Assembly (NCBI GenBank): GCA_031548325.1
Contig: JAVBRE010000128.1
Span: 1 to 47,815 of the forward strand
Length of the DNA: 47,815 bases
Direction of reading: 5' to 3'
DNA from: Desulfovibrionaceae bacterium
GTDB taxonomy: Bacteria; Desulfobacterota; Desulfovibrionia; Desulfovibrionales; Desulfovibrionaceae
Shown: piece after piece, positions 24,632 through 43,578 of the stretch
How positions within the stretch are numbered: the first letter of the stretch is position 1
Layout: every line of letters begins with the position of its first letter
Program-made: the position numbers and the translations under genes
The notes under the pieces: generated by a model
Database searches by the model: none
Seen by the model: the letters and a program-made list of their open reading frames with translations, nothing else
Told to the model about the DNA's origin: nothing

Positions 24632-24685
24632 GTGAAGGCGTTTTTCCGTAACAGAAAAACGCCTTCACTCTTTTCTTTTATTTTA
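24632..24685 (+). terminator. Strong rho-independent terminator at the left edge of the low-G+C island
   Basis: gtgaaggcgttttt-ccgtaacag-aaaaacgccttcac (14-bp perfect stem) followed by tcttttcttttatttta. Confidence 0.7.
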
Positions 24686-25024
24686 TCAAGCAGATGCCGA
24701 ACCTATGCTCTACCTGAACAGGCTCCAAAACCTGGTGAATACTTGCCGAAACCAAAACTGCCGATTGCCGCTTAACATGGCGTCCGAATTTGACGACCTA
24801 CCCCAACCCGCCTCATAGGTATCCCCTATGGCCGGATACCAAATTATTATTTGCATCCCTTTTGATGATTATGCAACGAGATATATACCAGAAGGTGAAA
24901 TGCCGGCCTGTTGATGGCGGGAAACAAAAAATGTCACACGGTCAAATAAAGGAACGTGCGCAAAAGTGCGTCAATATGCAGAACCAACATCGTATTATGA
25001 CACGAAACAGATAAAGAGTAAATT

Positions 25025-26233
25025 ATGAAAAATTACGTCATAACAAGTGCGGTCAGAACAGCGGTGGGTGCTTACCTCGGTAGTTTAAAAACAGTTGAAG
25101 CGCAGGATCTTGGCGCTGCCGTTCTCAAGGAAGCGCTCAGACGTTCCGGAGTAAAAGCGAAAGACGTGGATGAAGTCATCATGGGCGATGTATTCGGGTA
25201 TACGCCGAACGTTGCTAGGTGCGCTTCGCTTCTTGCCGGTATTCCCCAAGAAATTTCAGCGTACACTGTGGACAGGCAATGCGCGTCCTCGTTACAGGCT
25301 GTTGCGGGCGCAACGTATCAGATAGCCGCCGGTGAAGCGGAAATCGTTTTAGCCGGCGGCGTAGAAACCATGTCTCGTATGCTCTACAGTCTGCCGCCTT
25401 CAGCTAGATCCGAACCATTGCAGCTTGGCAACAAGATGCTTCATGATGCATTTACCCACGGCGTCAGTATTGCGCAACCGGTCTCTATGTTTCCGGATCT
25501 CAACATGGGTCTGACAGCGGAAAATGTGGCTGAAAAATATCAGATTACCCGCGAGGAGCAGGATAACTTCGCGCTGGACAGCATCCGCAAGATGAAGGCT
25601 GCGCAAGCGGAGGGAAAATTTAAAGAAGAGATAGTTCCCTTTGAAGTCGTGCTCCGAAAATCCAGTTTTATTTTTGATGCTGACGAACATCTCAGACCTG
25701 ACACCACTCTTGAAATACTTGCCAAGTTGCGGCCCGTCTTTAAAAAGGATGGCACGGTCACCCCGGGCAACTCTTCGGGAATGAATGACGGCGCTTCGGC
25801 CGTCGTGGTCATGAGCGAAGAAAAGGCGAGAAGCCTCGGGTGTAACCCTCTGGCCCGCATCCTGGCCACAAGCAGAGCCGGTGTTGATCCCCGCTACATG
25901 GGGCTTGGCCCTGTTCCGGCCATCAGGAAAGCTTTGGACAAAGCAGGACTTACCCTTGAAGACATAGACCTTTTTGAAATCAACGAAGCTTTCGCTGCCC
26001 AAAGCCTTGGATGCCTTAAAGAATTGGGAATGGATATGGGGACTGAGTTGTACAAACGAGTGAACGTCAACGGAGGAGCCATCGCCCACGGCCATGCTCT
26101 TGCCAGCAGCGGCACCCGCCTCATGACTACCGCAATCCATGAGCTAAAGCGGCGTAACGCTCGTTATGGAGTGGTCTCGTTGTGCATCGGCGGCGGCCAA
26201 GGCATGGCCGCCATCATTGAAAATTGTCAATAA
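25025..26233 (+). CDS. Acetyl-CoA C-acetyltransferase (thiolase II)
   Basis: 402 aa. VDRQCASSLQA (active-site Cys), NVNGGAIAHGHALASSG and SLCIGGGQGMA are C-terminal thiolase signatures. Confidence 0.9.
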   Translation: MKNYVITSAVRTAVGAYLGSLKTVEAQDLGAAVLKEALRRSGVKAKDVDEVIMGDVFGYTPNVARCASLLAGIPQEISAYTVDRQCASSLQAVAGATYQIAAGEAEIVLAGGVETMSRMLYSLPPSARSEPLQLGNKMLHDAFTHGVSIAQPVSMFPDLNMGLTAENVAEKYQITREEQDNFALDSIRKMKAAQAEGKFKEEIVPFEVVLRKSSFIFDADEHLRPDTTLEILAKLRPVFKKDGTVTPGNSSGMNDGASAVVVMSEEKARSLGCNPLARILATSRAGVDPRYMGLGPVPAIRKALDKAGLTLEDIDLFEINEAFAAQSLGCLKELGMDMGTELYKRVNVNGGAIAHGHALASSGTRLMTTAIHELKRRNARYGVVSLCIGGGQGMAAIIENCQ

Positions 26234-26256
26234 ATCGCCAAACTGAGGGACTGGAA

Positions 26257-27111
26257 ATGGTCATGCAAAAAATCGGTGTCGTGGGCGCTGGAATGATGGG
26301 AGCTGAAATAGCACTCTGCTTTGCCCGGTTCGGCTATGACGTCATTATGAGCGATGTAAGTCAGGAAAATGCAGAAAAAGGCAAAGCCAAGCTCGCCGCA
26401 ATTCTGAACAAACATATCACCAATGGAAAATTGGATCAGGAAACAAAAGAACAATATTTGGGCAGGATTACCCCTACGGGAACCGTCGCGGATATGGCGG
26501 GCTGCGATTTTGTCGTTGAAGCGATTGTCGAAGTGCTGGAAGTGAAACACGAGATTTACAAAGCCTTGGATGCGGTCTGCAAAAAAGACGCGATCATCGC
26601 CAGCAACACATCAAGCATATCCATAACCAAACTTGCTGCCGTTCTCAGCGCAAAACGAGCCCAGCGCTTTATCGGCACGCATTTTAACTCGCCGGCCAGC
26701 GTCATGAAGCTGGTAGAGGTTATCCCGGCACTTCAGAGTTCGGAAGAGGTGGTGACTGAAACCATGGCCTTGTTATCTGCCATCGGGAAAGTCCCCGTGA
26801 AAGTTAAGGATGTCGTCGGCTTTGCCCTTAACCGCATGTTCGCCGCTTTTTATCTCGAAGCCTGCCGCCTGGTCGAAGAAGGAGTATGCTCCGTCGAAGA
26901 CGTGGACACCGTCTGTTTGCATGGACTTGGACATCCTGTAGGGGTGTTCAAGCTTTTGGACGTCATCGGCCTTGACCTGCACATGAATGTGGACCGAATC
27001 CTTTTTGATGCTTATGGCGACCGCTTCAGACCGAGTCCCTGCATCCAGCGGCTTACCGATTCAGGGCGCCTCGGCAGGAAAACCGGACAAGGCTTTTACC
27101 TGTACAAATAA
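26257..27111 (+). CDS. 3-hydroxyacyl-CoA (3-hydroxybutyryl-CoA) dehydrogenase
   Basis: KIGVVGAGMMGAEIAL Rossmann fold, ASNTSSISIT, FNSPASVMKLVEV and a C-terminal HCDH domain. ATG 26257 follows GAGGGA. Confidence 0.85.
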   Translation: MVMQKIGVVGAGMMGAEIALCFARFGYDVIMSDVSQENAEKGKAKLAAILNKHITNGKLDQETKEQYLGRITPTGTVADMAGCDFVVEAIVEVLEVKHEIYKALDAVCKKDAIIASNTSSISITKLAAVLSAKRAQRFIGTHFNSPASVMKLVEVIPALQSSEEVVTETMALLSAIGKVPVKVKDVVGFALNRMFAAFYLEACRLVEEGVCSVEDVDTVCLHGLGHPVGVFKLLDVIGLDLHMNVDRILFDAYGDRFRPSPCIQRLTDSGRLGRKTGQGFYLYK

Positions 27112-27236
27112 GGAAAGCCGATGCCGGAGCGCAGGCAACTCACCGGCCGAGAAACCTGCTGATTGTTGCGCTTTTCTTTACACACCTGGTCCGTCACAAA
27201 AATTTTACGAGATCGATTTGAAGCAAGGAGGCCCGA

Positions 27237-28016
27237 ATGGAGTTCAAACGCACGATACGGTGCGCCGTGCATGGTTCAGTTGCCGTGATTACGGTGAACA
27301 ACCCACCTGTCAACTCGATCAATTTTGATGTTCTTTTTGGATTTTTAGAGTGCTTCACATATTTGGCCGAACAGCCTTCATTAACAGCGGTCATTCTTAC
27401 CGGCGAAGGCAAGGCTTTTATCGCTGGCGCGGATATACGCGAAATTTGTGATGGCGGGGACGATTTTCTTTGCCGGTCCAGCAAACAGGGGCATGAGATA
27501 TTCAGCTGTATAGAAAACTTTCCTGTTCCCCTCATTGCCGCCATCAATGGCGTGGCGCTGGGGGGAGGGCTTGAACTTGCCATCTGCTGCGATATTCTCA
27601 TAGCTTCGGAGAAGGCCAAATTCGGATTACCGGAAACAGCCCTTGGCATAGTGCCCGGCTGGGGAGGGCTCTCCCGTTTGCCGAAAATAGTTGGCGTGGG
27701 TCAGGCTAAAAAGATAATTTTCACGGCCGAACACATCCCGGCGGCACGGGCCATGGAGATCGGGTTAGTGCAAGAAGTGGCGCCGCCGGAACAATTGATG
27801 GAGCGGGCCATGGAAATCGCGGAAAAAATCAGCAAAAACGGCCCCGTTGCCGTTCGGGAAGCAAAGAAGGTTTTGAACCGCGCCAAGGAAATGTCATTGC
27901 AGTCGGCCATTTACTGTGAGCAAGAAGCCGTCCGTTTCTGCTGTCATTCCAGGGATAAAATTGAAGGCATCGACGCCTTTCTCAAGAAAAGAACTCCGGA
28001 ATTCACCAATTCTTGA
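27237..28016 (+). CDS. Enoyl-CoA hydratase (crotonase family); both catalytic Glu positions appear present
   Basis: VILTGEGKAFIAGADI, AAINGVALGGGLELAICCD and FGLPETALGIVPGWGG. Confidence 0.85.
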   Translation: MEFKRTIRCAVHGSVAVITVNNPPVNSINFDVLFGFLECFTYLAEQPSLTAVILTGEGKAFIAGADIREICDGGDDFLCRSSKQGHEIFSCIENFPVPLIAAINGVALGGGLELAICCDILIASEKAKFGLPETALGIVPGWGGLSRLPKIVGVGQAKKIIFTAEHIPAARAMEIGLVQEVAPPEQLMERAMEIAEKISKNGPVAVREAKKVLNRAKEMSLQSAIYCEQEAVRFCCHSRDKIEGIDAFLKKRTPEFTNS

Positions 28017-28095
28017 GCAAGAAATCCGACGCATCAGCTCCAGAAGACGACCGCCCCGACACGGCATTTTGCCTACGGCATCCACAGTACTATGT

Positions 28096-29667
28096 ATGGA
28101 GAAAGCAGTGACGAGGTTTCTCTCCCCCCGCGAAGCCGTGGACCTGATCAGGGACCGCGACACTCTGGCCGTCAACGGCTTCATCGGGACGGCCCATCCG
28201 GAAGTCCTGAGCAAGACCCTAGAAGAACGTTTCCTCGAAACCGGCAAACCCGAAGGCCTCAGCCTTGTCTACGCAGCCGGGCAGGGTGACAGAAAAAACA
28301 AGTCCCTCAATCACCTCGGGCATGAAAAATTGCTTTCCCGGGTCATCGGGGGACACTGGAACATGGCGCCTGCGCTGGGAAAACTTGCCGTTGAGGAAAA
28401 GATCGCGGCCTACAACCTTCCTCAAGGAGTCATCTCCCAGCTCTACCGCGATATCGCCGCCGGAAATCTGGGCACCATCACCCACGTGGGTCTGAAAACT
28501 TTTGTGGATCCCCGTCTGGACGGCGGCAAGATCAACAAAAGCGCCACCGAGGACATCGTGGAACTGATCACCATCGGCGGGCAGGAACGGTTGCTGTACA
28601 AGGCCATGCCTATCACGGCCTGCCTTATCCGCGGCACCTACGCCGATGAAAAGGGCAACGTTTCCATGGAACACGAAGGCGTGGTCGGCGACGCCACGGC
28701 CATGGCCCAGGCCGTCAGGAATTCCGGAGGCATCGTCATCGTCCAGGTCGCAGAAAAAGTGCGAGCCGGCAGTCTGGATCCCCGTCTGGTCAAGCTGCCG
28801 CACATTCTGGTGGATGTGGTCGTGGCGGTGGGGCATGAACGCAACCAGGATGATTTCGGACAGGTTCCCCGCCCTGCCTGCTGCGGCGAGATCCGTTTGC
28901 CGCTCGCCGGCATTCCGGCCCTGCCCTTTGACGAACGCAAGATTATAGGCCGCCGCGCGGCTATGGAACTCAATCCCGGATCGGTGGTCAATCTCGGTAT
29001 AGGCATGCCCGAAGCCATCGCGGCAGTGGCTGCCGAGGAAGGCATAAGCGACTATATGACCCTGACCGTGGAAGCCGGCTCCGTGGGCGGCATTCCGGCG
29101 GGGGGATTCGATTTCGGCCTGTCCCTCAACCCCGAGGCCATTCTGGACCAAAGCGCCCAGTTCGATTTTTACGACGGGGGTGGGCTGGACATCGCCAATT
29201 TGGGTCTCGCGGAATGCGACGAGACAGGCAACATTAATGTCAGTAAGCTGGGATCGCACATCACCGGCTGCGGCGGGTTTATCAACATAACCCAGAACGC
29301 GAAACGTCTGTTTTTCTGCGGCACATTCACAGCTAAAAACCTCGAGATAACCGTTGCCGACGGTAAACTGCGCATCGCTCGCGAGGGTCTGGTCAAAAAA
29401 TTCATCAAAAAAGTCGGTCATGTGACTTTCAGCGGTGAATACGCTGCCGTCCGCGGCCAGCCCGTTACATACATCACTGAGCGGGCTGTGTTCGAACTTC
29501 GCAACGACGGGCTGCATCTGATGGAAATCGCGCCCGGCGTCGACCTGGAAAAGGATGTTCTGGGTCAGATGGGGTTCCGGCCGAAAATGGACTCGCCGCC
29601 GAAGCTCATGGACGAAAAAATTTTTAAGCCTGACCTGATGGGACTTTCCGGTCGACAACCTTCATAA
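28096..29667 (+). CDS. Fused family-I acyl-CoA:acetate/3-ketoacid CoA-transferase (YdiF/Pct-like)
   Basis: 523 aa. AVNGFIGTAHPE..., GHWNMAP, YNLPQGVISQLYRDIAAG and LTVEAGSVGGIPAGG. The track ORF from 27916 overlaps the crotonase gene, so ATG 28096 is preferred. Confidence 0.8.
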   Translation: MEKAVTRFLSPREAVDLIRDRDTLAVNGFIGTAHPEVLSKTLEERFLETGKPEGLSLVYAAGQGDRKNKSLNHLGHEKLLSRVIGGHWNMAPALGKLAVEEKIAAYNLPQGVISQLYRDIAAGNLGTITHVGLKTFVDPRLDGGKINKSATEDIVELITIGGQERLLYKAMPITACLIRGTYADEKGNVSMEHEGVVGDATAMAQAVRNSGGIVIVQVAEKVRAGSLDPRLVKLPHILVDVVVAVGHERNQDDFGQVPRPACCGEIRLPLAGIPALPFDERKIIGRRAAMELNPGSVVNLGIGMPEAIAAVAAEEGISDYMTLTVEAGSVGGIPAGGFDFGLSLNPEAILDQSAQFDFYDGGGLDIANLGLAECDETGNINVSKLGSHITGCGGFINITQNAKRLFFCGTFTAKNLEITVADGKLRIAREGLVKKFIKKVGHVTFSGEYAAVRGQPVTYITERAVFELRNDGLHLMEIAPGVDLEKDVLGQMGFRPKMDSPPKLMDEKIFKPDLMGLSGRQPS

Positions 29668-29679
29668 GGGGCAATATCG

Positions 29680-30837
29680 ATGTCTGACAGAATATTCAGA
29701 ATCCCACCGATTATCCGCGTTGGTGAAGGCGCGGCCGTCCGAACAGGCAGGGAGGCGAAAAACATGGGCGCCACAAGGGCTCTTGTCATCACCGATTCTT
29801 TTCTCTTCACATCCGGCACCATCAAATCGGTCATAGATTCTTTGGCTGGGGCCGGGCTGGAAGTGGCCGTATACGACCAGGTCAACGCAGAGCCAACCTT
29901 GGCCCATGTGGCGGAATGTCTGGCGCTTTGCAAGAAGTCCAAAAGCCATGTCATAGTCGGTTGCGGCGGGGGCAGCCCCATTGATGTTGCCAAGGCCGTC
30001 AGCGCCATGGCCGTGAATGGCGGAAAAATTCAGGATTACATCGGCATCGGCAAAATCCCGAAAATAGGACTGCCAATCATTGCCGTGCCCACCACGGCGG
30101 GCACCGGGAGCGAGGCCACGTGCACCACCATCATCGCCGATACCGAACGCGATGTGAAAATGCTCATCATCAGTCCATATCTTTTGCCTTCCGCCGCCAT
30201 CGTGGACCCGCTTCTGACTCTGGGCATGCCCAGGGGCATCACAGCGGCCACGGGCATGGACGCCCTCACCCACGCGATGGAAGCCTATGTTTCCCGAAAA
30301 AACCAGCCCATGGCCGACGTATACGCCCTGAGCGCAGTCAGGCTGATTTGCGAAAATTTGTCCACCGCCTGGGGCGAGCCGTCCAACATGGTAGCGAGAA
30401 CCAAGGTTCTTCTCGGCGCCCTGCAGGCGGGCATCGCTTTTTCCAATTCCTCGGTGGCGCTGGTGCATGGCATGTCCCGCCCCGTGGGCGCGCTGTTCCA
30501 CGTGGCGCACGGCGTATCCAACGCCGCCCTTTTGGGCGTGGTCACGGAATTTTCTCTTGCCGGGAACTACGGGCGCTATGCCGATCTTGCTGTTGCCATG
30601 GGCGCTTCGGGCAAGGGGACTAAGGAAGACATAGCCATGACCGGCGCGGTCATGGTCCAGAAACTTATCAAAAAACTTGAGATTCCCAGCCTGACCCAGC
30701 TCGGCGTGACGCGTGAAAAACTTGACACGGTGGTAGAAAAAATGGCCGACGACGCCATCGCCAGCGGCAGCCCGGGCAACAACCCCCGGCCGGCGACCAG
30801 GGAAGAAATCATCGCGCTCTATTACAGGGCTCTTTGA
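29680..30837 (+). CDS. Iron-containing (group III) alcohol dehydrogenase
   Basis: GCGGGSPIDVAKA, AVPTTAGTGSE, GMDALTHAMEAY and ALVHGMSRPVGALFHVAHG, the Fe-ADH metal-binding His motifs. Confidence 0.85.
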   Translation: MSDRIFRIPPIIRVGEGAAVRTGREAKNMGATRALVITDSFLFTSGTIKSVIDSLAGAGLEVAVYDQVNAEPTLAHVAECLALCKKSKSHVIVGCGGGSPIDVAKAVSAMAVNGGKIQDYIGIGKIPKIGLPIIAVPTTAGTGSEATCTTIIADTERDVKMLIISPYLLPSAAIVDPLLTLGMPRGITAATGMDALTHAMEAYVSRKNQPMADVYALSAVRLICENLSTAWGEPSNMVARTKVLLGALQAGIAFSNSSVALVHGMSRPVGALFHVAHGVSNAALLGVVTEFSLAGNYGRYADLAVAMGASGKGTKEDIAMTGAVMVQKLIKKLEIPSLTQLGVTREKLDTVVEKMADDAIASGSPGNNPRPATREEIIALYYRAL

Positions 30838-30853
30838 AAACAGTATTGCGCCG

Positions 30854-32113: not shown

Positions 32114-32121
32114 GGCCTCTG

Positions 32122-32289
32122 TTACTCCTTGTCTTGAGGTTGGGGCTTTGGGCTTGATGGTTCCAGCACCTTTTTTTCAGCATACAGGGCGAGAAGAAAG
32201 CTGCTTAACCGCGTTGCATAGATCAGAAGGGCCAAAAACAAAAACACGGTCCCGATTCCTACCACCATAATAAAGAGTCCTTTCAGCAT
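32122..32289 (-). CDS. OadG-like small membrane anchor subunit (gamma/delta) of the decarboxylase
   Basis: 55 aa: [33 protein letters not shown] followed by a Pro/Lys-rich tail. ATG 32289 follows GGAGGA. Directly upstream of the beta subunit. Confidence 0.6.
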
Positions 32290-34006: not shown

Positions 34007-34015
34007 TGGTATAAT
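34007..34015 (+). promoter_or_regulatory. Extended -10 element TGgTATAAT (plus strand) abutting the lysR start codon
   Basis: tggtataat read at 34007-34015, with no good -35. It would launch a plus-strand transcript into the 728-bp AT-rich spacer toward tctC. Confidence 0.35.
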
Positions 34016-35677: not shown

Positions 35678-35775
35678 CGTACTTTTATTCATTTGGGCCG
35701 GCGCACGGGGACGTGTGGTATGTGCTCCCAACAGGGTTTCGGAATCGATGTGGAGCGAAAACGCAAGGAGAGATA

Positions 35776-36225: not shown

Positions 36226-36238
36226 GTAGAGGTGGCCA

Positions 36239-37756
36239 ATGGATGTTTTTTTCAACGCAGCAGTTGACGCCCTGAATGCTACAACCTTGCTGTATATTGC
36301 CATAGGGGTCGTTATCGGCGTTACCGTCGGCGCCATTCCGGGCCTGAGCGGCGCCATAGCGGTGGCCCTTTGCGTTCCTCTGACCTTTTATATGTCGGCT
36401 GTCGCTGCCATCGGTTTTTTGATCGGCATTAATAAGGGGGGCACGTTTGGCGGGTCCATCGCCTCTATCCTCATTAATACCCCCGGAGCGCCGGAATCGG
36501 CCGCCACGGCTTTTGACGGATACCCTCTTGCCCAAAAAGGGCAGGGGGTCCGCGCTGTAAAGGTATCGCTGTATTCCAGTTTTTTTGGCGACACATTTTC
36601 GGCCTTGTGTCTGATCAGCTTTTCCATCCCGCTCGCATCTGTTGCTATTAAGCTGGCCCCTATCGACCTTTGCGCTATAATCGTTTTTTCGCTTGTCCTT
36701 GTTTCGAGCCTGGAAAGCGACAATATCGGCAAAGGACTCATTTCCTGCTGTCTGGGAATGCTCGTTGCGTGTATCGGCCAAGACACGTTTGGAGAAGAAC
36801 GGTTTGTCTTTTTCAATATCTTGGATCTTTCGGTCGGAGTGTCCTTAATGGGCCTGTCTATCGGCACCCTTGCCCTGTCCGAAGTTATATTTCAGGTTCA
36901 AAAGCATCTACTGTTCACAGCAAGCGCCGCCCAGGCATCTTTGGCCGTCAGTCCTGACAAAAAACGCCTGCACTGGGCGGAGTTCAAAAGCCTGATACCC
37001 ACGTGCCTCAGAAGCTCATGCATCGGCGCCGTCATCGGTGCTCTTCCGGGGCTGGGCGCAACCATGGCCGCGTTCATGGGGTACGGCATGGCGAAAAAAT
37101 TTTCAAAAACCCCCGAGGAATTCGGCACAGGATGCCTGGAAGGCATTGCGGGGCCTGAAGCGGCCAACAACGCCGTCATCGGCTCGAATTTGATTCCTGT
37201 TTTGACATTGGGCATACCCGGCAACCTTACCTCGGCCATTGTCATGGGTGCATTGATAATGCACGGAATTCAGCCGGGCCCCTTACTTTTTGAAAAAAAC
37301 CCAGATCTTATTTACGGCATTTACGTCATGGTTTTCATCGCCGGGTTCATGAATCTGATCATTTCGCGTATAGGCATGGGACTTTTTTTCAGGGCTCTTG
37401 CCCTACGCCGTTCAGTCTTGATGCCCGTGGTGATGTTTCTCTGTTTGTCGGGAGCGTATCTCGGCGATATGTCGACATTTGCCGTGGGCATCATGCTTCT
37501 CATGGGATTGCTCGGGTTTTTTATGAGAAAATTCGGCTATTCGTTTGTCACCTTCTTAATAGGTTTTGTGCTCGCGCCGGGATTTGAAAGTTCTCTGCAG
37601 CAATCTCTGATCATCTATGATGATCAGTTCTGGTTGTTCTTTACCCGCCCGGTTCCTGTACTCGCGCTTCTCGGATGCTTCTATATAATCTGGCGTTCAT
37701 TACGGAAAAATCCGCAATCCATTTCGCAGAGCCATGAAATGCTCGATTTGAGCTGA
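36239..37756 (+). CDS. tctA: Tripartite tricarboxylate transporter large permease (TctA family)
   Basis: 505 aa and polytopic. GAIPGLSGAIAVAL, INTPGAPESAATAFDGYPLAQKG and GALPGLGATMAAFMGY. Confidence 0.9.
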   Translation: MDVFFNAAVDALNATTLLYIAIGVVIGVTVGAIPGLSGAIAVALCVPLTFYMSAVAAIGFLIGINKGGTFGGSIASILINTPGAPESAATAFDGYPLAQKGQGVRAVKVSLYSSFFGDTFSALCLISFSIPLASVAIKLAPIDLCAIIVFSLVLVSSLESDNIGKGLISCCLGMLVACIGQDTFGEERFVFFNILDLSVGVSLMGLSIGTLALSEVIFQVQKHLLFTASAAQASLAVSPDKKRLHWAEFKSLIPTCLRSSCIGAVIGALPGLGATMAAFMGYGMAKKFSKTPEEFGTGCLEGIAGPEAANNAVIGSNLIPVLTLGIPGNLTSAIVMGALIMHGIQPGPLLFEKNPDLIYGIYVMVFIAGFMNLIISRIGMGLFFRALALRRSVLMPVVMFLCLSGAYLGDMSTFAVGIMLLMGLLGFFMRKFGYSFVTFLIGFVLAPGFESSLQQSLIIYDDQFWLFFTRPVPVLALLGCFYIIWRSLRKNPQSISQSHEMLDLS

Positions 37757-37785
37757 CCCTGTGGAGCGCATCGCTCAGAGCACTT

Positions 37786-37945
37786 ATAGCATTTTAACTT
37801 TAAAAAGTTGCAGCAAAAATTCTGATAACTGCAGAAGGCCATCTTAATAATATAGGTAAATTACAGGATTTTAACTACACGCGTAGCGGACGTCCTCTAC
37901 GCGTCCGTCAGAGCAAATTCACTTTTTCAAAGCTAATTTGCTCTG
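37786..37945 (+). repeat. 160-bp MITE-like element, copy B (same orientation as copy A)
   Basis: See copy A. The 3' end forms cagagcaaatt...aatttgctctg, an 11-bp perfect stem. Confidence 0.7.
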
Positions 37946-37946
37946 A

Positions 37947-38028
37947 CGCTTGAAATAGTCGCCTACGCCTATTTGGCGACAAGGATTTGCGGACAAATCC
38001 TTGCGAGCATTTCAAGTGTGAAATGCTC
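37947..38028 (+). repeat. Structured intergenic repeat, family R, copy R3 (shortest), abutting MITE copy B
   Basis: cgcttgaaatagtcgcctacgcctatttggcgacaaggatttgcggacaaatccttgcgagcatttcaagtgtgaaatgctc. Its reverse complement aligns with R1. Confidence 0.6.
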
Positions 38029-38101
38029 TAACAGCAAGCGAAACCATTTCAGCGGGCTGCGCTCAATCAGACGGGCAGGCACAAAAAATCATGGATCAAG
38101 C

Positions 38102-38139
38102 GGCCAGCTTTTCTCGAAACGCAACCGGAAAAGCTGGCC
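38102..38139 (+). terminator. 12-bp perfect hairpin in the leader of the carboxyltransferase operon (terminator/attenuator-like)
   Basis: ggccagcttttc - 14-nt loop - gaaaagctggcc, followed by gaatcttttcc, a weak T tract. Confidence 0.35.
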
Positions 38140-38333
38140 GAATCTTTTCCGGGCAGCTTCCAACGCTTCAACCCCGCCAAGAGGCCCAGAAATTCGATCT
38201 TCGCAATATTCCCCGCCCCTTATGGGCATTAGAGTCTCCTATGACGGCATATCGAAGCATTATTTGTACCTTGCCTATTTTTCCGGGCAATAATGCAAAC
38301 AATGGTCGCACGTTCAAATCGAAGGAGAGCAAT

Positions 38334-39863
38334 ATGAAATTTGAGCAAGAAATAAAGGAATTTGAAGAACGAAAAGCAATGGCGCTTGCCATGGGCGGAC
38401 CGAAAAAACTGGCAAAGTTCAAAGCAAAGGGCAGTCTGAACGCCCGAGAGCGTCTTGAATACCTTCTGGACAAAGGCACATTTCGCGAATCTGGCCTTTT
38501 TGTGAAAGGAGAAGTGCCGGAGCAGCGCGAAGATTCTCCCTGCGACGGCAGAATAACGGGGTTCGGAAAGGTCAACGATCGGATGGTGGGAGCGATTTCC
38601 AACGATTTTACAGTATATGGCGCTACATCCACCAGTTATAACAGCCAGAAACAGAGTTATCTCAAAGGTGTCTGCGACCGGAACGGGTACCCCATGATAA
38701 TACTTGGCGAAGCTGGCGGCGGGCGCATCCCCGACAACATGGGTGCAGCGAACCTGCACTACCAGGCCTTGGGCAAAAAATACGTCCGTTACCGCACCAC
38801 CCCTTGGGTCAACGCGATCACCGGACCGTCTTTTGGCGCTTGTTGCTGGAATGCCTGTCTGAGTGATTTTGTGGTCATGAAAAAAGGGGCCTGCCTTGCG
38901 GTTGCAAGTCCCAGGCTCTGTTCTACCGCAACCAACAGCGAAGTTTCGGCGGAGGATCTTGGCGGCTGGAAACTGCATTCTCAGGTTACCGGTATCGCTG
39001 ATGTTGTCGTCGAGACTGATTATGAGGCCATTGACACCATTAAGCGATTTCTCAGCTACATGCCTTCGCACAACCTGACAACGTCTCCGGTGGCGGAGGT
39101 ACCAGAGGGGTCGGACGACGCCGTAAAAAATATCCTCGAAATTTTGCCCGAGAAACGATCGCAGGTTTACGACGTCAAAAAAATCATTCAGGCAATTGTG
39201 GACAAGGGCAGCATGTTCGAAATTAAGGCTCGCTTTGGACGGGCAATGACCACCTGTTTCGCGCGGATCAATGGCCGCGTTGTCGGGATCATCGCCAACA
39301 ATCCATATTATCTGGCAGGCGCCATGGATTATAGCGCCAGCGACAAAACCATCAACATGATGGTGCTATGCGATTCATATAACATTCCAATTCTTTGGCT
39401 TGTGGATCAACCCGGATTCATCATCGGCGTGGAAGGGGAACGACACAGGATGCCGGGAAAAATTATGAACTGGATGAATGCGCTGGCTCAGGTCACTGTG
39501 CCGAGTTTTGCCATTCAAATACGCAAAAATTACGGGCAGGCGGTGCTTAATATGGGCACGACAACGAGCGTGCAGTGCATGGGGGCATGGTGGAGCGCCG
39601 AAACCAGTTTCATGGACCCGCATTCAGCCTTGAATGTCGTGAAAGGCATTACCTATGAAGACGACCCTGAACGGTATACCGAGGCGCTCGGCAGCTACAC
39701 TTCGGAAAACAATGTGTACGAACTCGGCCGTGTATTTGGATGCCACCAGATAATCGACCCGCGTGAAAGCCGGGACTATATGAAAGATATGCTTGAAATT
39801 CACGCATCGCCGAAAAATTCCATAGGCAAACATCAGCTGCGAAATTGGCCCACCACGGTTTAA
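38334..39863 (+). CDS. Carboxyltransferase (alpha) subunit of a biotin-dependent acyl-CoA decarboxylase/carboxylase; divergent member of the AccD/PccB/MmdA superfamily
   Basis: 509 aa. LNARERLEYLLDKGTF, ISNDFTVYGA, GRVVGIIANNP and IPILWLVDQPGF are carboxyltransferase blocks. ATG 38334 follows GAAGGAGA. The track ORF from 38091 is an extension. Confidence 0.85.
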   Translation: MKFEQEIKEFEERKAMALAMGGPKKLAKFKAKGSLNARERLEYLLDKGTFRESGLFVKGEVPEQREDSPCDGRITGFGKVNDRMVGAISNDFTVYGATSTSYNSQKQSYLKGVCDRNGYPMIILGEAGGGRIPDNMGAANLHYQALGKKYVRYRTTPWVNAITGPSFGACCWNACLSDFVVMKKGACLAVASPRLCSTATNSEVSAEDLGGWKLHSQVTGIADVVVETDYEAIDTIKRFLSYMPSHNLTTSPVAEVPEGSDDAVKNILEILPEKRSQVYDVKKIIQAIVDKGSMFEIKARFGRAMTTCFARINGRVVGIIANNPYYLAGAMDYSASDKTINMMVLCDSYNIPILWLVDQPGFIIGVEGERHRMPGKIMNWMNALAQVTVPSFAIQIRKNYGQAVLNMGTTTSVQCMGAWWSAETSFMDPHSALNVVKGITYEDDPERYTEALGSYTSENNVYELGRVFGCHQIIDPRESRDYMKDMLEIHASPKNSIGKHQLRNWPTTV

Positions 39864-39898
39864 AATAGCTGCCAGCAGGAAAACAAAAGGAGTCGACA

Positions 39899-40108
39899 AT
39901 GGCGATTTTAGAATGCCCCATGTCGGGGTCTGTCTGGAAAATCAATGTAAAAATTGGTGAGGCCGTCCAGGACGGAGACGAGATGATTATTCTGGACTCC
40001 ATGAAAATGGAAGTCCCTGTGATCGCGGAAGACAATGGTACGGTCGTTGAAATCCTTGTTTCCGAAGGCGATCCCGTGAACCCGGGGGATACGCTTGTCA
40101 AATTTTAG
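39899..40108 (+). CDS. Minimal (69-aa) biotin carboxyl-carrier / biotinyl-domain protein
   Basis: GSVWKINVKIGEAVQDGDEMIILDSMKMEVPV carries the biotinyl-Lys in an (A/S)MKM motif. There is no linker or N-terminal domain. Confidence 0.85.
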   Translation: MAILECPMSGSVWKINVKIGEAVQDGDEMIILDSMKMEVPVIAEDNGTVVEILVSEGDPVNPGDTLVKF

Positions 40109-40155
40109 ATACAAACGTTGAGGCGACGGTTGGTCAACGGCCCTGGAATGACGCC

Positions 40156-40947
40156 ATGCATGCCCCGCTGATACATTTGCAGCATACGGACTCAACCAAT
40201 AATGAATTGCGGCGCAGGCTGGAGCATGCGCAGGCGCCTGATGGCACGGCGGTGCTGGCGGACTTTCAGACAAAGGGACGCGGGCGCAGGGGCCGGGCAT
40301 GGCAAAGCGCTCCGGCGGACAACATCCTGTGCTTGATTTGGAAATCTTTGGATATTTCACTGCCGGAGATTCAAGGGATATCTCTGCTGCCTGCGTTGGC
40401 TGTTCTGGATGTGCTTGACGCTTTGGGAGTTCATGCGTCCTGCAAGTGGCCGAATGACGTCAGGATACAGGGAAGAAAGGTATGCGGCATATTGACGGAA
40501 TGCCTCAGGGGACCGGCTGACGCCATAGCCGGGGTCATCATTGGCATTGGAATCAATGTGGCAAGCGCTCTAGAGCTTGTTCCGGACAAAATATGCCCTC
40601 CGCCGATCTCTTTGTTTGAGGCTTCCGGCTTCCGCTTCGATCGCATAAGACTTTGCCGCGGTCTGCAGCAAGCTTTGGAGAGCCGCGTCAATCTCTGGCG
40701 GCGGGGACTCCGCCCCGAACTTTTTGCCGAATGGGTATCGCGCTGCGACCATGTGGGCAGTTTGGCGAGCATCACTGTTAATGGTTGCAAAACTGTCGGG
40801 AGAATGTGCGGCTTGGACGCGTCGGGGCAATTGCTGTTTCAAGTGGGGGACCATGTATGCCAGGTGTGGGCGGATGATCTTGAGCCCTATGGAAACATGC
40901 AAACTTTTGGCCGCGCCGGCCAAGATCAGAACATGACCGTGAGATAA
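40156..40947 (+). CDS. birA: Biotin--[acetyl-CoA-carboxylase] ligase, group I (no N-terminal DNA-binding domain)
   Basis: HTDSTNNEL...QTKGRGRRGRAWQS is the GRGRxGRxW signature; also KWPNDV..GRKVCGIL. Confidence 0.8.
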   Translation: MHAPLIHLQHTDSTNNELRRRLEHAQAPDGTAVLADFQTKGRGRRGRAWQSAPADNILCLIWKSLDISLPEIQGISLLPALAVLDVLDALGVHASCKWPNDVRIQGRKVCGILTECLRGPADAIAGVIIGIGINVASALELVPDKICPPPISLFEASGFRFDRIRLCRGLQQALESRVNLWRRGLRPELFAEWVSRCDHVGSLASITVNGCKTVGRMCGLDASGQLLFQVGDHVCQVWADDLEPYGNMQTFGRAGQDQNMTVR

Positions 40948-41050
40948 ATCCTTTGCAACGCCGGTGCGACAATCCAGGCCGCGCTGCTTCAAAATCTCGT
41001 TTTCGAGCTTCACAAGAAGCGGCGCTGTTTTATCCCGGCAAGGAGACATC

Positions 41051-42358
41051 ATGCCAATATTTTCTTATAAAAATAAAATAATTACTGCCGAACAGGCAGC
41101 AAATATGGTGAAAAGCAATGATACGGTTTTGTTTCAGCACAGTAATGCCGCTCCCTGGAAATTCATTGACGCCCTCATGCGCCGCAAAGATGAATTGCAC
41201 CGCGTACAGATCAGCCATACGCGTATAGAGGGCTCCTTGCCCTATTTTCGTGATGACTATGGCGATACCTTTTTTCATAATACGTTCATGATAAGTCCAG
41301 AGGGGCGAAAACCCATGGACGAGGGACGCGCGGACTATATCCCATGCTGTTTCGTCAACCAGCCCGGCCTCGTCAGACGGAAAAATTTTCCTGTAGATAC
41401 CTGCGTTCTTCATGTATCCCCGCCGGATGCATACGGGTATTGTTCCTATGGCATTTGCGCGTCCTATGTGCCGGGCGCGCTTGAATCGATCAAAACCGTC
41501 ATTGCCGAGATTAATCCCCAAATGCCGAAAACCTGCGGCGCTCAGATCCATATTTCAGATATCGATTACTTCATTGAAGTGGATTATCCGCTGCCTGAGA
41601 GTAAGCTTGTTACATCCGGTCCGGTTGAGATCAAGATCGGAGAACATGTAGCCTCGTTGATAGATGACGGCTGCACTTTGCAAACCGGTATTGGAGGCAT
41701 TCCAAACGCCCTGATGGGTTGTCTGAGCAATCACAAGGATATCGGCATACACACGGAAATGTATGCCGATGGTGTCGTTGAACTAGTAAAAAAAGGCGTC
41801 ATTACGGGAAGGAAGCGCGGATACCATGCCGGAAAGATCACTTCCACCTTTGTTATGGGCACGAAAACAACCTTTGATTTTGTCAATAACAATCCGAGCG
41901 TTGAAATAGTGCGCGTTGAAGAAACCAACGATCCATCCATCATCGCTCTGAATAACAAGTTTGTCGGGATAAACGCCGCCACTGAAGTCGACGTAACAGG
42001 CCAAATTTGTGCCGAAAGTGTGGGCACGCGGCACGTCAGCGGCACGGGAGGGCAACTGGATTTCGCGCTTGGCGCTCATATCTGCGAGGGGGGGAAATTC
42101 ATCATAGCGCTGCCATCCACGGCGGCTGACGGCAAGGCCTCGCGGATATCAGCCTGCCTCGCGGAAGGAGCGGGCGTTACCACCCCCCGTTCTCTGGCAG
42201 ATTATATTGTCACCGAATATGGCATTGCTTCCCTGAGAGGGAAAAATCTTGCGCAGCGCGCGAAAGCGATGTTGCAAATAGCGCACCCGGATTTTCAAGA
42301 AGAATTGGAAAGAAAAGTACATGCCAGACGTGATGTGCATTTCACTTTTTTCAAATAA
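41051..42358 (+). CDS. Acetyl-CoA hydrolase/transferase-family CoA-transferase (4-hydroxybutyrate / butyryl-CoA:acetate CoA-transferase-like)
   Basis: 435 aa. LQTGIGGIPNAL, INAATEVDVTGQ and VSGTGGQLDF. ATG 41051 follows AGGAGA. The ORF from 40964 is an extension. Confidence 0.85.
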   Translation: MPIFSYKNKIITAEQAANMVKSNDTVLFQHSNAAPWKFIDALMRRKDELHRVQISHTRIEGSLPYFRDDYGDTFFHNTFMISPEGRKPMDEGRADYIPCCFVNQPGLVRRKNFPVDTCVLHVSPPDAYGYCSYGICASYVPGALESIKTVIAEINPQMPKTCGAQIHISDIDYFIEVDYPLPESKLVTSGPVEIKIGEHVASLIDDGCTLQTGIGGIPNALMGCLSNHKDIGIHTEMYADGVVELVKKGVITGRKRGYHAGKITSTFVMGTKTTFDFVNNNPSVEIVRVEETNDPSIIALNNKFVGINAATEVDVTGQICAESVGTRHVSGTGGQLDFALGAHICEGGKFIIALPSTAADGKASRISACLAEGAGVTTPRSLADYIVTEYGIASLRGKNLAQRAKAMLQIAHPDFQEELERKVHARRDVHFTFFK

Positions 42359-42455
42359 ACAAAAAAAATGTACCCTGGCCTCGACAGATGAAAGGCGGGG
42401 CTAAAAAGCCCGTAAAGGAAATGGGCTTTCGATCATTTACAGCAGGCCCTTAGAC

Positions 42456-42535
42456 CAAATTCACTTTTTCAAAGTTAATTTGCTTAGAACATTTCTCGAA
42501 ACTGTTTCCATACAATTTGAAAGTCGAAATTCTCT
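42456..42535. repeat. Rearranged fragment of the MITE-like family (two terminal-repeat pieces in opposite orientation) at the right edge of the island
   Basis: aaattcactttttcaaagttaatttgct matches the 3' ends of copies A and B. The following gaaactgtttccatacaatttgaaagtcgaaattctc is the reverse complement of the 5' end of the copy at 46567. Confidence 0.5.
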
Positions 42536-42587
42536 AAATTTGAAATATGAACAAGCAGGGCGATCATACGTCATGGGGCAGACCGAC

Positions 42588-43574: not shown

Positions 43575-43578
43575 GGCT

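Follow-up and report, generated by a model that had tools for sequence, protein, structure and literature searches.

A horizontally acquired catabolic island with the predicted parts of a Na+-translocating acyl-CoA decarboxylase in an uncultured Desulfovibrionaceae genome

What could a low-G+C island that combines genes for a Na+-pumping biotin decarboxylase with genes for beta-oxidation do in the genome of an uncultured Desulfovibrionaceae bacterium, and is it foreign? The island lies in a stretch of 47,815 nucleotides, the whole of which is called the window below. [quoted passage not shown]

Borders and composition of the island

The island and its non-coding elements are the following:
24445..42603, no strand: acquired island, whole; 18.2 kb, G+C 0.505, delimited by a synteny break against locus L164 and by composition
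24631..24669, plus: terminator-like hairpin at the left border, with a 16-bp stem and a T run after it, behind the host gene orf159 (23965-24444)
32653..32809, plus: 157-nt intergenic repeat, copy 1, upstream of oadG
37788..37944, plus: 157-nt repeat, copy 2, 83% identical to copy 1 and about 390 nt upstream of the carboxyltransferase gene
42447..42484, plus: 157-nt repeat, copy 3, incomplete (palindrome portion only); right border

Synteny with the nearest relative, GCA_031551515.1 (L164; CarB 91% identical), permitted the borders to be set independently of composition. DNA of this relative aligns with positions 45797-42604 and 24444-21388 of the window, that is, on both flanks. Between the aligned blocks, the relative has 1.1 kb with a single EamA gene while the window has 18.2 kb; hence, the island is an insertion or a replacement. 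A search of the window for an EamA remnant found none.

The G+C content is 0.614 in the left segment (1-24444), 0.505 in the island and 0.625 in the right segment (42604-47815). In sliding windows it drops from 0.62-0.65 to 0.49-0.59 over about 24.5 to 42.5 kb and is lowest, at 0.355, in the stretch 33.5-34.5 kb. Per gene, values of 0.36-0.585 in the island compare with 0.59-0.67 for most flanking genes, and GC3 is 0.34-0.67 inside versus mostly 0.57-0.79 outside. The island is thus foreign DNA, acquired horizontally, as the first-pass annotation had concluded from composition judged by eye; synteny now backs that conclusion. The host belongs to the Desulfovibrionaceae. The terminator noted at the left border and the failure to find mobility genes also stood: the hairpin is present, no tRNA was found within the island, and domain searches of all island ORFs, small ones included, detected neither integrase nor transposase.

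Inside, the island is a mosaic, with G+C of 0.543 at 24445-32400, 0.389 in a patch around lysR (32401-34717) and 0.501 at 34718-42603. The 157-nt repeated element is located at the module junctions, and copy 2 contains a palindrome with a 20-bp stem (37906-37948).

Genes of the island

Pfam and NCBIfam profile searches upheld each gene call of the first-pass annotation:
25025..26233, plus: thiolase, nearest BktB and PcaF types (Pfam Thiolase_N/C; NCBIfam BktB 438 bits, PcaF 403 bits)
26257..27111, plus: 3-hydroxyacyl-CoA dehydrogenase (Hbd), Hbd/PaaH-like; ATG 26257 is preceded by an RBS
27237..28016, plus: crotonase, a short-chain enoyl-CoA hydratase
28096..29667, plus: fused family-I CoA-transferase, YdiF/Pct/FadX type (PF01144; FadX 387 bits; E. 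coli YdiF 2ahu 451 bits)
29680..30837, plus: Fe-dependent alcohol dehydrogenase, generic ethanol/propanediol type
30854..32113, minus: OadB-type beta subunit of a Na+-translocating carboxybiotin decarboxylase (PF03977 512 bits; TIGR01109 539 bits, cutoff 190.6)
32122..32358, minus: OadG-type membrane anchor (PF04277, E=1e-10)
33078..33995, minus: LysR-family regulator, divergent from tctC; G+C 0.38
34718..35677, plus: TctC periplasmic binding protein (PF03401), probable ATG 34724
35713..36225, plus: TctB small membrane subunit
36239..37756, plus: TctA large membrane subunit
38334..39863, plus: carboxyltransferase (CT), 509 aa; PccB/12S-like family without characterised members, OadB-linked clade
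39899..40108, plus: free-standing biotin carrier, 69 aa, with an SMKM biotinylation motif
40156..40947, plus: biotin-protein ligase, a BirA lacking the repressor HTH domain (TIGR00121 140 bits, cutoff 83)
40964..42358, plus: 4-hydroxybutyrate/butyryl-type CoA-transferase (profile searches; alignment to 3eh7)

Judged from these matches, the island carries a complete and apparently intact set of parts for a biotin-dependent, Na+-translocating acyl-CoA decarboxylase, in keeping with the split enzyme described earlier. All ORFs are intact and catalytic motifs are kept. In an alignment to Salmonella OadB (6iva), the residues D203, Y229, N373, G377, S382 and R389, which we take to be essential for Na+ pumping, are conserved. 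The probable start of OadG is Met24 (ATG 32289), which yields a protein of about 55 aa that has a single TM helix. Profile searches found neither a biotin carboxylase nor an OadA domain in the island. The decarboxylase is divided over two transcription units, the CT operon and oadGB, which are presumably co-regulated. A decarboxylase of this kind had been considered unusual in such a host; it is less so, since a Mailhella MAG has an ordinary oadGAB whose OadB is 71% identical to that of the island.

The thiolase scores below all NCBIfam equivalog cutoffs, and the best or tied matches of thiolase and Hbd are dicarboxylyl-CoA or longer-chain types (BktB/PcaF, PaaH). For TctC no close ligand-defined structure was found, the best match being BugD (95 bits). 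The public gene call starts the 4-hydroxybutyrate-type CoA-transferase at 41105, but the 3eh7 alignment favors the upstream start.

Family and neighborhoods of the carboxyltransferase

CT, the predicted substrate-choosing enzyme, falls outside all four known types of Na+ pump, in a large, unstudied family related to PccB and 12S. Bit scores are 280 with PCC beta (1vrg), 249 with 12S, 98-166 with MCC/GCC betas, and 84 and 57 with solved GcdA structures. Two assignments were ruled out: CT is not a GcdA orthologue (at most 84 bits, about 20% identity with bona fide GcdA) and not an MmdA equivalog (334 bits, cutoff 999). The MadB model gave 142 bits against a cutoff of 597. When the AlphaFold model (pLDDT 82.5) was searched with Foldseek, the top 50 matches were all alpha-carbon CTs, with no MCC/GCC/GcdA-type structure among them. 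By sequence and predicted fold, CT thus groups with PCC, 12S, ACC and LCC, and we lean toward an enzyme that acts on an alpha rather than a gamma carboxyl, although this placement rests on 27-33% identity and is no proof of regiochemistry. In a reference tree the CT family is monophyletic (100%) and sister to a second carboxyltransferase (CT2); it lies outside the canonical PCC/MMD CTs, and GcdA is remote from it. The earlier caveat that CT is divergent and MmdA-sized was therefore correct, while its reading as a GcdA-type enzyme was not borne out.

About 170 CT-family loci were examined. CT is commonly accompanied by biotin carboxylase, CT2, and genes for acid uptake and CoA activation. OadB adjoins a family CT in only three loci. 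The window CT, its 66% homologue P0002, and the CTs of loci L082 and L165 form one clade (bootstrap 94/100 and 80%), whose three members with known context have OadG/OadB in place of biotin carboxylase. BirA occurs also in the decarboxylase clusters of L165 and L176. Orthologues of the 4-hydroxybutyrate-type CoA-transferase (43-49% identity) adjoin CT in L082, L165, L010 and L088, and a called protein in L172 shares its Pfam domains; in all, this transferase adjoins CT in six loci. The set of 14 genes seen in the island was found nowhere else; L082 and L165 share its core alone. The Fe-ADH, unexplained in the first pass, and the YdiF-type transferase are accessory to the conserved module, since both are missing from 164 other loci of the family.

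The link between the decarboxylase and crotonase, Hbd and thiolase, noticed in the first pass, was found again in L082 (oadGB-BCCP-Hbd-Crt-Thl) and in distant carboxylase-type clusters: the Rhodobacteraceae loci L004, L005 and L086 (Hbd-Crt-CT-CoAT-CT2 plus Thl), L010 of Paenibacillus (CT-BC-BCCP-Crt-Hbd) and L030. Recurrence in unrelated clusters indicates that the wiring in the window is not a local accident. Minimal clusters also exist (L083, L171, L003, L048), with transporter, acyl-CoA synthetase, CT and BCCP but without the trio. They would suit a cassette in which malonate, methylmalonate or an alkylmalonate is taken up by the TTT system, activated by CoA transfer and decarboxylated with Na+ pumping, giving acetyl-, propionyl- or butyryl-CoA. 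The operon Thl-Hbd-Crt-YdiF-ADH would then handle C4 acids or alcohols and share the island by chance. Such a cassette would agree with an alpha-type CT and with the location of the trio in a separate operon of somewhat different G+C, together with two non-conserved genes. Malonate decarboxylation by way of malonyl-CoA is known from anaerobes. PMC8085960 names Sporomusa malonica. We consider this explanation improbable, however: genes of the trio and of CT are interleaved in several unrelated genomes (L082, L004/L005, L086, L010), the MmdA and MadB scores are far below cutoff, no mutase or epimerase is found within the window, and the island has no acyl-CoA dehydrogenase for butyryl-CoA.

Biotin carboxylase adjoins CT in about 34-36 loci, and most family members would count as carboxylases. 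One may then ask if the island enzyme runs in reverse, with a Na+ gradient driving acyl-CoA carboxylation and OadGB standing in for the ATP-dependent biotin carboxylase. A like-for-like swap of the biotin-charging module is parsimonious, the pathway direction would match that of the aerobic relatives, and Na+ decarboxylases are reversible in vitro. Physiological precedent is not established, however, and between canonical PCC and MMD this swap goes together with a reversed direction (L174 versus L176). The presence of an uptake system, a LysR regulator and CoA-transferases suggests a catabolic role, and the energetics would be unfavorable for a sulfate reducer. Reverse operation is, in our judgement, extremely improbable.

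CT2 is present in both other OadB-linked clusters, L082 and L165, and its absence from the window counts against a working cassette. It might instead betray a remnant without a working pathway, assembled from different donors, with CT2 lost and the decarboxylase genes split; the three compositional blocks and the repeats at module junctions would fit. Yet ORFs and catalytic motifs are intact, most CT loci lack CT2 (it occurs in about 29 of 164), and the CT-BCCP-BirA-CoAT block has a 100% identical copy in an independent sequencing run. Such decay is very unlikely, and the cassette probably works as a Na+-pumping decarboxylase of an acid that the cell imports.

Substrate and order of reactions

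In the favored reading, the acid would enter through the TTT system and be activated by the 4-hydroxybutyrate-type CoA-transferase at the expense of acetyl-CoA. CT would pass the free carboxyl group to biotin, OadB would decarboxylate carboxybiotin with Na+ export, and crotonase, Hbd and thiolase would convert the carbon skeleton to acetyl-CoA. Background on Na+ decarboxylases is found in PMC8085960. The simplest substrate class would be C5 dicarboxylates that are unsaturated or carry a 3-hydroxy group (glutaconate or 3-hydroxyglutarate, for example), with the net conversion C5 dicarboxylate → 2 acetyl-CoA + CO2 + 2[H]. That the imported acid is a C5 dicarboxylate has an even chance of being right, and we give the same weight to cassette and C5 substrate taken together, leaving the order of steps free. 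Neither glutaconate nor 3-hydroxyglutarate is known as an abundant substrate in the environment.

In the best reading, a short dicarboxylate is imported, undergoes decarboxylation with Na+ pumping and ends as acetyl-CoA; the decarboxylase would act either on a malonyl-type substrate after beta-oxidation or on glutaconyl-CoA. Because CT is PccB/12S-like, we lean tentatively toward beta-oxidation first: glutaconyl-CoA would be converted to 3-hydroxyglutaryl-CoA and 3-oxoglutaryl-CoA, thiolysis would yield acetyl-CoA and malonyl-CoA, and the latter would be decarboxylated with Na+ pumping. We know of no established reaction that forms malonyl-CoA in this way. The parts of the route first proposed (uptake, activation, decarboxylation, cleavage) are all there, and what becomes less certain is their order, as CT is not GcdA-type; the step from glutaconyl-CoA to crotonyl-CoA becomes one of two self-consistent orders.

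That other order would require CT to be a functional alpha subunit of glutaconyl-CoA decarboxylase, producing crotonyl-CoA with Na+ export and then 2 acetyl-CoA from imported glutaconate, or from 3-hydroxyglutarate after dehydration, once activated to glutaconyl-CoA. All enzymes are present and no extra one is needed; the CoA-transferase is of 4-hydroxybutyrate/butyryl type; and the family contexts in anaerobes all center on C4-CoA enzymes, namely the trio in L082 and, in L165, an acyl-CoA dehydrogenase resembling Bcd (5ol2, 424 bits) with EtfAB/FixCX, which fits a crotonyl/butyryl-CoA product and hence this order at least as well. Glutaconyl-CoA decarboxylase followed by crotonase, Hbd and thiolase is established, with glutarate fermentation by Pelospora as a precedent (PMC8085960). 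The scores and fold matches of CT given above speak against it. All characterized gamma-carboxyl CTs known to us fall in the other clade. We regard the crotonyl-CoA order as possible, if rather unlikely.

In Formimonas warabiya a family CT and a genuine GcdA lie in one cluster; the family CT would be redundant there if it were a glutaconyl-CoA enzyme, which argues for different substrates. No single chemical scheme that we built accounts for all CT-family contexts, carboxylase-type relatives included, and among the loci examined the pairing of CT with OadGB is confined to the clade that holds the window CT, L082 and L165.

A low-G+C island absent from the closest relative

Between about 24.5 and 42.5 kb, G+C content computed in 1-kb windows falls from 0.62-0.65 to 0.49-0.59, reaching its minimum of 0.355 near 34 kb, and the same step is seen at the island in per-gene G+C and GC3. 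By segment, G+C is 0.614 in the left flank, 0.505 in the island and 0.625 in the right flank. Three compositional blocks can be distinguished within the island (0.543, 0.389 and 0.501), which is internally mosaic.

In a CarB search, the CarB protein of the window was 91% identical to a protein on a 149-kb contig of the closest relative (locus L164, GCA_031551515.1) and about 70-73% identical to proteins of named Desulfovibrio and Nitratidesulfovibrio; on sequence similarity, the host is assigned to the Desulfovibrionaceae. L164 and the window align collinearly to the left and right of the island (2084-5300 corresponds to window 45797-42604, and 6409-9536 to window 24444-21388). Between the collinear blocks, L164 contains a 1.1-kb EamA gene alone, as opposed to 18.2 kb in the window, where no EamA remnant is left. 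The synteny break thus delimits the island at 24445-42603. A low-G+C island had been drawn by the first-pass annotation at 24669-42560, and both sliding-window G+C and synteny bear it out with these slightly wider borders. Judged from the alignment, and with the nearest known genome as reference, the island arose by insertion or replacement; it is a genomic island in the sense that its composition is atypical and that a close relative lacks it at the syntenic site. Domain and tRNA searches detected no integrase, transposase or tRNA in the island, as had been claimed, and of the usual signs of mobility (an integrase, a tRNA target, direct repeats at the flanks) there was just a 157-nt repeat inside the island, a partial copy of which lies at its right end.

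Island features discussed in the text (window coordinates)
24445-42603, the island
32401-34717, lysR with both flanking intergenic regions
32653-32809, 157-nt element, upstream of oadG
34235-34696, open reading frame of 153 aa in the lysR-tctC spacer
37757-38333, non-coding leader of 577 nt between tctA and the carboxyltransferase gene
37788-37944, 157-nt element, about 390 nt upstream of the carboxyltransferase gene
38334-39863, plus strand, carboxyltransferase (CT), 509 aa
42447-42484, partial third copy of the element, at the right island border

The lysR patch has a G+C content of 0.36-0.39, compared with about 0.50-0.58 in the remaining island, which suggests a separate origin. The open reading frame found in the 720-nt lysR-tctC spacer has no Pfam match and is probably not a gene.

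The two full copies of the AT-rich intergenic element are 83% identical. Within the element lies the palindrome AGCAAATTCACTTTTTCAAAG(C/T)TAATTTGCT (2 copies found within 3 mismatches versus 0 expected); Rfam gave no match anywhere in the window, the repeat included. Two roles are conceivable for the element: an operator or promoter common to the split decarboxylase genes, through which they would be coordinated, or a small mobile element located at module junctions. One copy lies inside the long CT leader, and leader and repeat may be regulatory. The CT gene starts with the ATG at 38334, which follows GAAGGAGAG; an in-frame upstream extension from 38091 shows no similarity to family members.

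Decarboxylase parts and a separate carboxyltransferase family

Functions are read here from sequence and gene context. Pfam and NCBIfam searches upheld every gene call of the first-pass annotation, and start codons in the island were refined from the sequence. OadB scores 539 bits with TIGR01109 (cutoff 190.6) and aligns to Salmonella OadB over the whole core, with D203, Y229, N373, G377, S382 and R389 kept; we take these to be the residues essential in OadB, for Na+ binding and carboxybiotin decarboxylation, according to mutagenesis work in Klebsiella. OadG matches PF04277 (E=1e-10) and has one transmembrane helix, the 69-aa biotin carrier (BCCP) harbors an SMKM biotinylation motif, the CT matches PF01039 with 271 bits, and BirA is devoid of a repressor domain. 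The decarboxylase genes are split: oadGB lies on the minus strand, CT-BCCP-birA on the plus strand. Biotin carboxylase (BC) and OadA (PYC_OADA/HMGL plus fused carrier) are absent from the island, and the sole ATP-grasp protein in the window is CarB. Presence of pump, anchor, carrier and CT, with neither BC nor OadA, makes up the parts list of a Na+ decarboxylase of the Gcd or Mmd type. The island is probably a Na+-pumping decarboxylase cassette for an imported acid; carboxylation driven by Na+ on the same parts is less likely.

The remaining genes concern activation and carbon-skeleton chemistry. The family-I CoA-transferase is of the fused YdiF/Pct/FadX type (451 bits to Escherichia coli YdiF), and the second one is a member of the 4-hydroxybutyrate/butyryl-CoA transferase family, with 405 bits to 3eh7. 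The thiolase (Thl) leans BktB/PcaF-like and the 3-hydroxyacyl-CoA dehydrogenase (Hbd) leans PaaH-like. Together with crotonase (Crt), they are the only carbon-skeleton enzymes, as acyl-CoA dehydrogenase, Etf, dehydratase and mutase are absent from the island. The closest matches of the Fe-ADH are ethanol, methanol and propanediol dehydrogenases, so a role as 4-hydroxybutyrate dehydrogenase is unsupported. The uptake system is TctCBA (TTT); TctC has no close ligand-defined structure, and the substrate cannot therefore be read from it.

Scores of the CT with solved structures are 280 bits for a PCC beta subunit, 249 for transcarboxylase 12S, 98-166 for MCC and GCC beta subunits, and 84 (3gf3) and 57 (1pix) for two GcdA proteins. 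The top 50 fold matches to its AlphaFold model (pLDDT 82.5) are without exception alpha-carbon carboxyltransferases, 27-33% identical. Among 5.8 billion proteins, one homologue (P0002) was found at 66% identity, followed by a very large family at 48-56%; more than 120 proteins are listed in the 48-66% range, and the only exact match is a 4.7-kb contig. Samples containing the cassette are SRR23967709, ERR14654798 and JGI 3300031555. Members of this family are about 510 aa long and carry the motifs GE(S/A)xGxR(M/I)PDxMG and RKxYGQ, both present in the CT of the window. They are spread over Burkholderiales, Rhodobacterales, Bacilli, Actinobacteria and others, with generic annotations only. A neighbour-joining tree was built on p-distances, also used for the bootstraps, with uncharacterised stand-ins for the canonical enzymes (a BC-linked Phocaeicola CT, an OadB/BirA-linked Acetoanaerobium CT, a PccB-like CT of Pacificitalea, and a true GcdA). 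The family comes out as monophyletic (100%) and sister to a second family, CT2 (99.5%); it falls outside canonical PCC/MMD and far from GcdA. The true GcdA used here, from locus L030, scores 761 bits with 3gf3 and is 20-21% identical to the CT.

The suggestion that the CT is the alpha subunit of a glutaconyl-CoA decarboxylase is at odds with bit scores, identity and tree, and orthology with GcdA is ruled out. MmdA is likewise ruled out, with 334 bits under TIGR01117 (cutoff 998.8) and a position outside the canonical PCC/MMD clade; nor does the CT cluster firmly with housekeeping acetyl- or propionyl-CoA carboxylases, an outcome that the earlier reading had named as decisive against itself. 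The position equivalent to PccB D422 is uninformative, since canonical non-actinobacterial CTs are hydrophobic there too. The cassette couples a known Na+ pump to a CT of a separate, widespread and unstudied family.

Comparison with known systems

According to a 2021 review (PMC8085960), only four decarboxylases are proven Na+ pumps, those acting on oxaloacetate, methylmalonyl-CoA, glutaconyl-CoA and malonate. The island fits the structural definition of the NaT-DC family (TC 3.B.1), made of pump, anchor, carrier and CT, and orthology tests for the substrate-specific subunit failed for all four. Hence, the island appears to be a variant apart, more than a new Gcd or Mmd member. Our literature search returned nothing specific on this gene combination or on a Na+ decarboxylase of Desulfovibrionaceae. 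Relevant comparisons can be summarized as follows:

(i). GcdABCD of Acidaminococcus fermentans and Clostridium symbiosum (TC 3.B.1, EC 7.2.4.5) resembles the island in its soluble CT, free carrier, OadB-type pump and small OadG/GcdD anchor. Gcd genes can be dispersed, and crotonase, Hbd and thiolase act next in metabolism (PMC8085960). However, GcdA has 587 aa, the carrier of the island is a bare domain, and the island contains neither 2-hydroxyglutaryl-CoA dehydratase nor the glutaconate CoA-transferase GctAB.

(ii). The CT of MmdABCDE (Veillonella, Propionigenium; EC 7.2.4.3) and propionyl-CoA carboxylase matches that of the island in size and fold class (TM 0.84-0.87), yet is only about 30-32% identical. 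Motifs are NDSGGARIQEG and RKAYGGAY in Mmd/PCC versus GEAGGGRIPDNMG and RKNYGQA in the island, and neither methylmalonyl-CoA mutase nor epimerase was found within the 47.8-kb window.

(iii). Transcarboxylase 12S of Propionibacterium freudenreichii subsp. shermanii is among the best sequence and fold matches of the CT, and many relatives of the CT have a transcarboxylase-like parts list of two different CTs and a carrier. The island differs in having one CT only, no 5S (pyruvate) subunit and an added membrane pump.

(iv). Glutarate fermentation by Pelospora glutarica involves a CoA-transferase, glutaryl-CoA dehydrogenase/Etf, Na+ glutaconyl-CoA decarboxylase and butyryl-CoA formation (PMC8085960). 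The island has no acyl-CoA dehydrogenase or Etf to match it.

(v). An acetone-induced cluster of Desulfotomaculum arcticum/geothermicum encodes a Na+-translocating decarboxylase subunit, a CT, an acyl-CoA synthetase and thiolases (PMC8084838). By description, it is similar to the island in that a sulfate reducer carries an OadB-type subunit and a CT of unassigned role beside thiolase, hydratase and dehydrogenase genes; its B12 mutase, TDP enzyme and oxidoreductases are missing from the island.

(vi). Mad, the biotin-dependent malonate decarboxylase of Malonomonas, comprises a MadB-type pump and a MadA transferase and is distinguished by ACP (MadE) and a split MadC/MadD CT; neither ACP nor a split CT is found in the island, and the MadB model TIGR03136 gives the island OadB 142 bits (cutoff 597). 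ACC/PCC-type carboxylases have the BC partner that the island lacks. OadGAB differs in the presence of OadA, which is found in Mailhella and in other loci with related OadB.

A Mailhella MAG, also of the Desulfovibrionaceae, carries oadGAB with an OadB 71% identical to that of the island; a Na+ decarboxylase in such a host is less unusual than the first-pass annotation had supposed. Other close OadB homologues were discarded as guides to the CT, as they belong to ordinary oadGAB/citrate-lyase loci that are silent on it. In Acetoanaerobium noterae (L176, NZ_CP154629.1 5004-9675), a canonical-type CT, BCCP, an OadB 59% identical to that of the island and BirA lie in one operon; a dedicated biotin ligase is therefore not unique to the window.

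Gene neighbourhoods and the order of steps

Neighbours of the CT family (census of about 170 loci from genomes, metagenomes and single look-ups, biased to aerobes and scan-reachable loci)
TctC, 97 loci
Small BCCP, 64 loci
ADP-forming acyl-CoA synthetase, 44 loci
Acyl-CoA dehydrogenase directly upstream of CT, 39 loci
Biotin carboxylase, about 34-36 loci
CT2, about 29 loci
Crotonase, 27 loci
Family-III CoA-transferase, 21 loci

OadB adjoins the CT at three places only: the window, L082 and L165. None of the 159 loci obtained by genome and metagenome pattern scans has OadB beside the CT, and L082 and L165 came from individual look-ups. The CTs of the three loci and P0002 form one clade (bootstrap 94/100; 80% in the smaller reference tree). 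Gene orders informative for function are as follows:

L082: LysR, 4-hydroxybutyrate/butyryl-type CoA-transferase, CT2, TctCBA, CT, BCCP, TctABC, OadG OadB, BCCP, Hbd, Crt, Thl
L165: TctC, CT, 4-hydroxybutyrate/butyryl-type CoA-transferase, Bcd-like acyl-CoA dehydrogenase, EtfBA, FixCX, MBL, BCCP, OadG OadB, BirA, CT2
L030, Candidatus Formimonas warabiya, NZ_CP017634.1 6373-21233: UxaA/SuyB-like dehydratase, Ldh_2, CT, BCCP, fused ADP-forming acyl-CoA synthetase, TctCBA, BCCP, GcdA, Hbd, Crt
L173, Cupriavidus necator N-1 plasmid pBB2, NC_015724.1 100979-120505: GntR, TctC, CaiB-type CoA-transferase, BCCP, CT2, MaoC-type hydratase, TctC, CT, BC

The pairing of the CT with either BC or OadB has a precedent in PCC/MMD, where a single CT lineage is found with one or the other (L174 versus L176). 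The CT family presents a parallel to PCC/MMD, with an ATP-driven BC in aerobes and a Na+ pump in anaerobes; unlike PCC/MMD, neither direction has been described yet for the CT family.

The link of the CT with crotonase, Hbd and thiolase is found across phyla (L082; Rhodobacteraceae L004, L005 and L086; Paenibacillus L010; Formimonas L030). Such conservation argues that the link is functional and no local accident; a non-functional mosaic is a less likely reading of the island, as is plain malonate or alkylmalonate decarboxylation beside an unrelated C4 module. The 4-hydroxybutyrate/butyryl-type transferase is the recurrent activating enzyme (six loci), swapped elsewhere for family-III transferases or ADP-forming synthetases. 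Uptake systems vary (TTT, TRAP, TAXI-TRAP) and are always of the organic-acid type. The Fe-ADH and the YdiF-type transferase appear in none of the other CT-family loci and are accessory.

Biotin carboxyltransferases remove only an alpha carboxyl (malonyl type) or a gamma carboxyl in a conjugated enoyl or 3-oxo system (glutaconyl type). With Crt, Hbd and Thl alone, two self-consistent routes can be drawn, both starting from an unsaturated or 3-hydroxy C5 dicarboxylate, and we give even chances to a C5 dicarboxylate being the substrate of the cassette. The two routes would share their net yield, 2 acetyl-CoA + CO2 + 2[H], with Na+ export.

The route favoured by the first-pass annotation decarboxylates glutaconyl-CoA to crotonyl-CoA first and then forms 2 acetyl-CoA. 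It has biochemical precedent, and what supports a glutaconyl-CoA activity of the CT is gene context (Crt/Hbd/Thl). The Bcd/Etf context of L165 speaks for this route as well. The TctC, CoA-transferase, acyl-CoA dehydrogenase, EtfAB, FixCX, BCCP, OadGB and BirA of L165 are exactly the parts list of the Pelospora pathway as described. The L165 dehydrogenase scores 424 bits with 5ol2 (electron-bifurcating butyryl-CoA dehydrogenase), 268 with a non-decarboxylating glutaryl-CoA dehydrogenase and 178 with GcdH; being more Bcd-like than GDH-like, it indicates C4 thioesters. On the other hand, the CT is placed among alpha-type enzymes, and in Formimonas a family CT, accompanied by a BCCP, a synthetase and a TTT system of its own, is followed directly downstream by the genes for BCCP, a genuine GcdA, Hbd and Crt. 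Co-occurrence of both enzymes in one cluster argues that the family CT does not decarboxylate glutaconyl-CoA. We consider this route rather doubtful.

In the alternative order, beta-oxidation would come first. Glutaconyl-CoA would be converted to 3-hydroxyglutaryl-CoA and 3-oxoglutaryl-CoA; the latter would be cleaved to acetyl-CoA and malonyl-CoA, and malonyl-CoA would be decarboxylated on the Na+ pump. We lean towards this order tentatively and by a narrow margin: the CT groups with alpha-type enzymes, a family CT co-occurs with GcdA in Formimonas, and thiolase and Hbd have a BktB/PcaF-like and a PaaH-like character, respectively. If true, glutaconate or 3-hydroxyglutarate would be degraded by a route that bypasses glutaconyl-CoA decarboxylase.

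A more speculative reading, to which we attach limited confidence, is that the cassette might represent a fifth biochemical class of Na+-translocating decarboxylase, whose CT would act on a malonyl-type thioester that arises only once an imported C5 dicarboxylate has been cleaved by beta-oxidation, and that the whole CT family (CT, CT2, BC/BCCP, TTT/TRAP uptake and CoA activation) might constitute an undescribed carboxylation pathway in aerobes. As its pump is joined to a CT of an unstudied family, the cassette may lead to a further substrate whose decarboxylation conserves energy, would offer a functional handle on thousands of "carboxyl transferase domain-containing protein" entries in Burkholderiales, Rhodobacterales, Bacilli and Actinobacteria, and exemplifies the gain of a Na+-coupled catabolic module by a sulfate-reducer lineage through gene transfer. 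Because CT, carrier and ligase are small and soluble, the substrate question is directly testable in vitro. C. necator N-1, cultured and genetically tractable, could serve as a model in which to learn what the family does in aerobes.

In 39 Burkholderiales loci (L020, L033, L036-L038, L044, L047, L060, L068, L071 and others), acyl-CoA dehydrogenase and TctC directly precede the CT, often with no BC or BCCP within 10 kb and in some cases with two or three CT paralogues. The order acyl-CoA dehydrogenase-CT-crotonase-BCCP-BC resembles the logic of liu/atu (methylcrotonyl/geranyl-CoA carboxylase) clusters, yet the CT is of the PCC type. No common chemistry was found in the wider Burkholderiales neighbourhoods, which mix enolase superfamily, AcnX, amidohydrolase, PrpD and cupin genes. 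Sulfonate-type genes also recur near family CTs (L165 13913-16917, L030 6000-8732, L002 8852-9892, L083 and L171): SAF+GD_AH (SuyAB-like) with Ldh_2 (ComC-like), PF03601 "putative sulfate exporter" and TauE. An organosulfonate pathway was considered on account of these neighbours; no chemical role for the CT was found in it.

A second difference from L164 lies at window 10485-17340, where about 6.9 kb stand in place of a single 526-aa gene. Its contents are:

10881-12164, minus strand, pyridine-nucleotide disulfide oxidoreductase
Within 10485-17340, open reading frame of 540 aa without Pfam match
13711-15807, fused DctQM of a TAXI-type TRAP transporter
15826-16842, binding protein of the same transporter

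G+C dips to 0.52-0.55 at 15.5-17.5 kb. TAXI-TRAP transporters flank the CT in L003 and L088, and the one in the window was considered as a partner of the CT; the candidate was rejected, its binding protein being only 27-28% identical, and the transporter is not of the kind that adjoins CT genes. Lastly, the 94-nt tRNA-Cys called by ARAGORN at 8580-8673 (minus strand) lies within dnaJ, whose coding region spans 8185-9312 on the plus strand, and is most likely a false positive.
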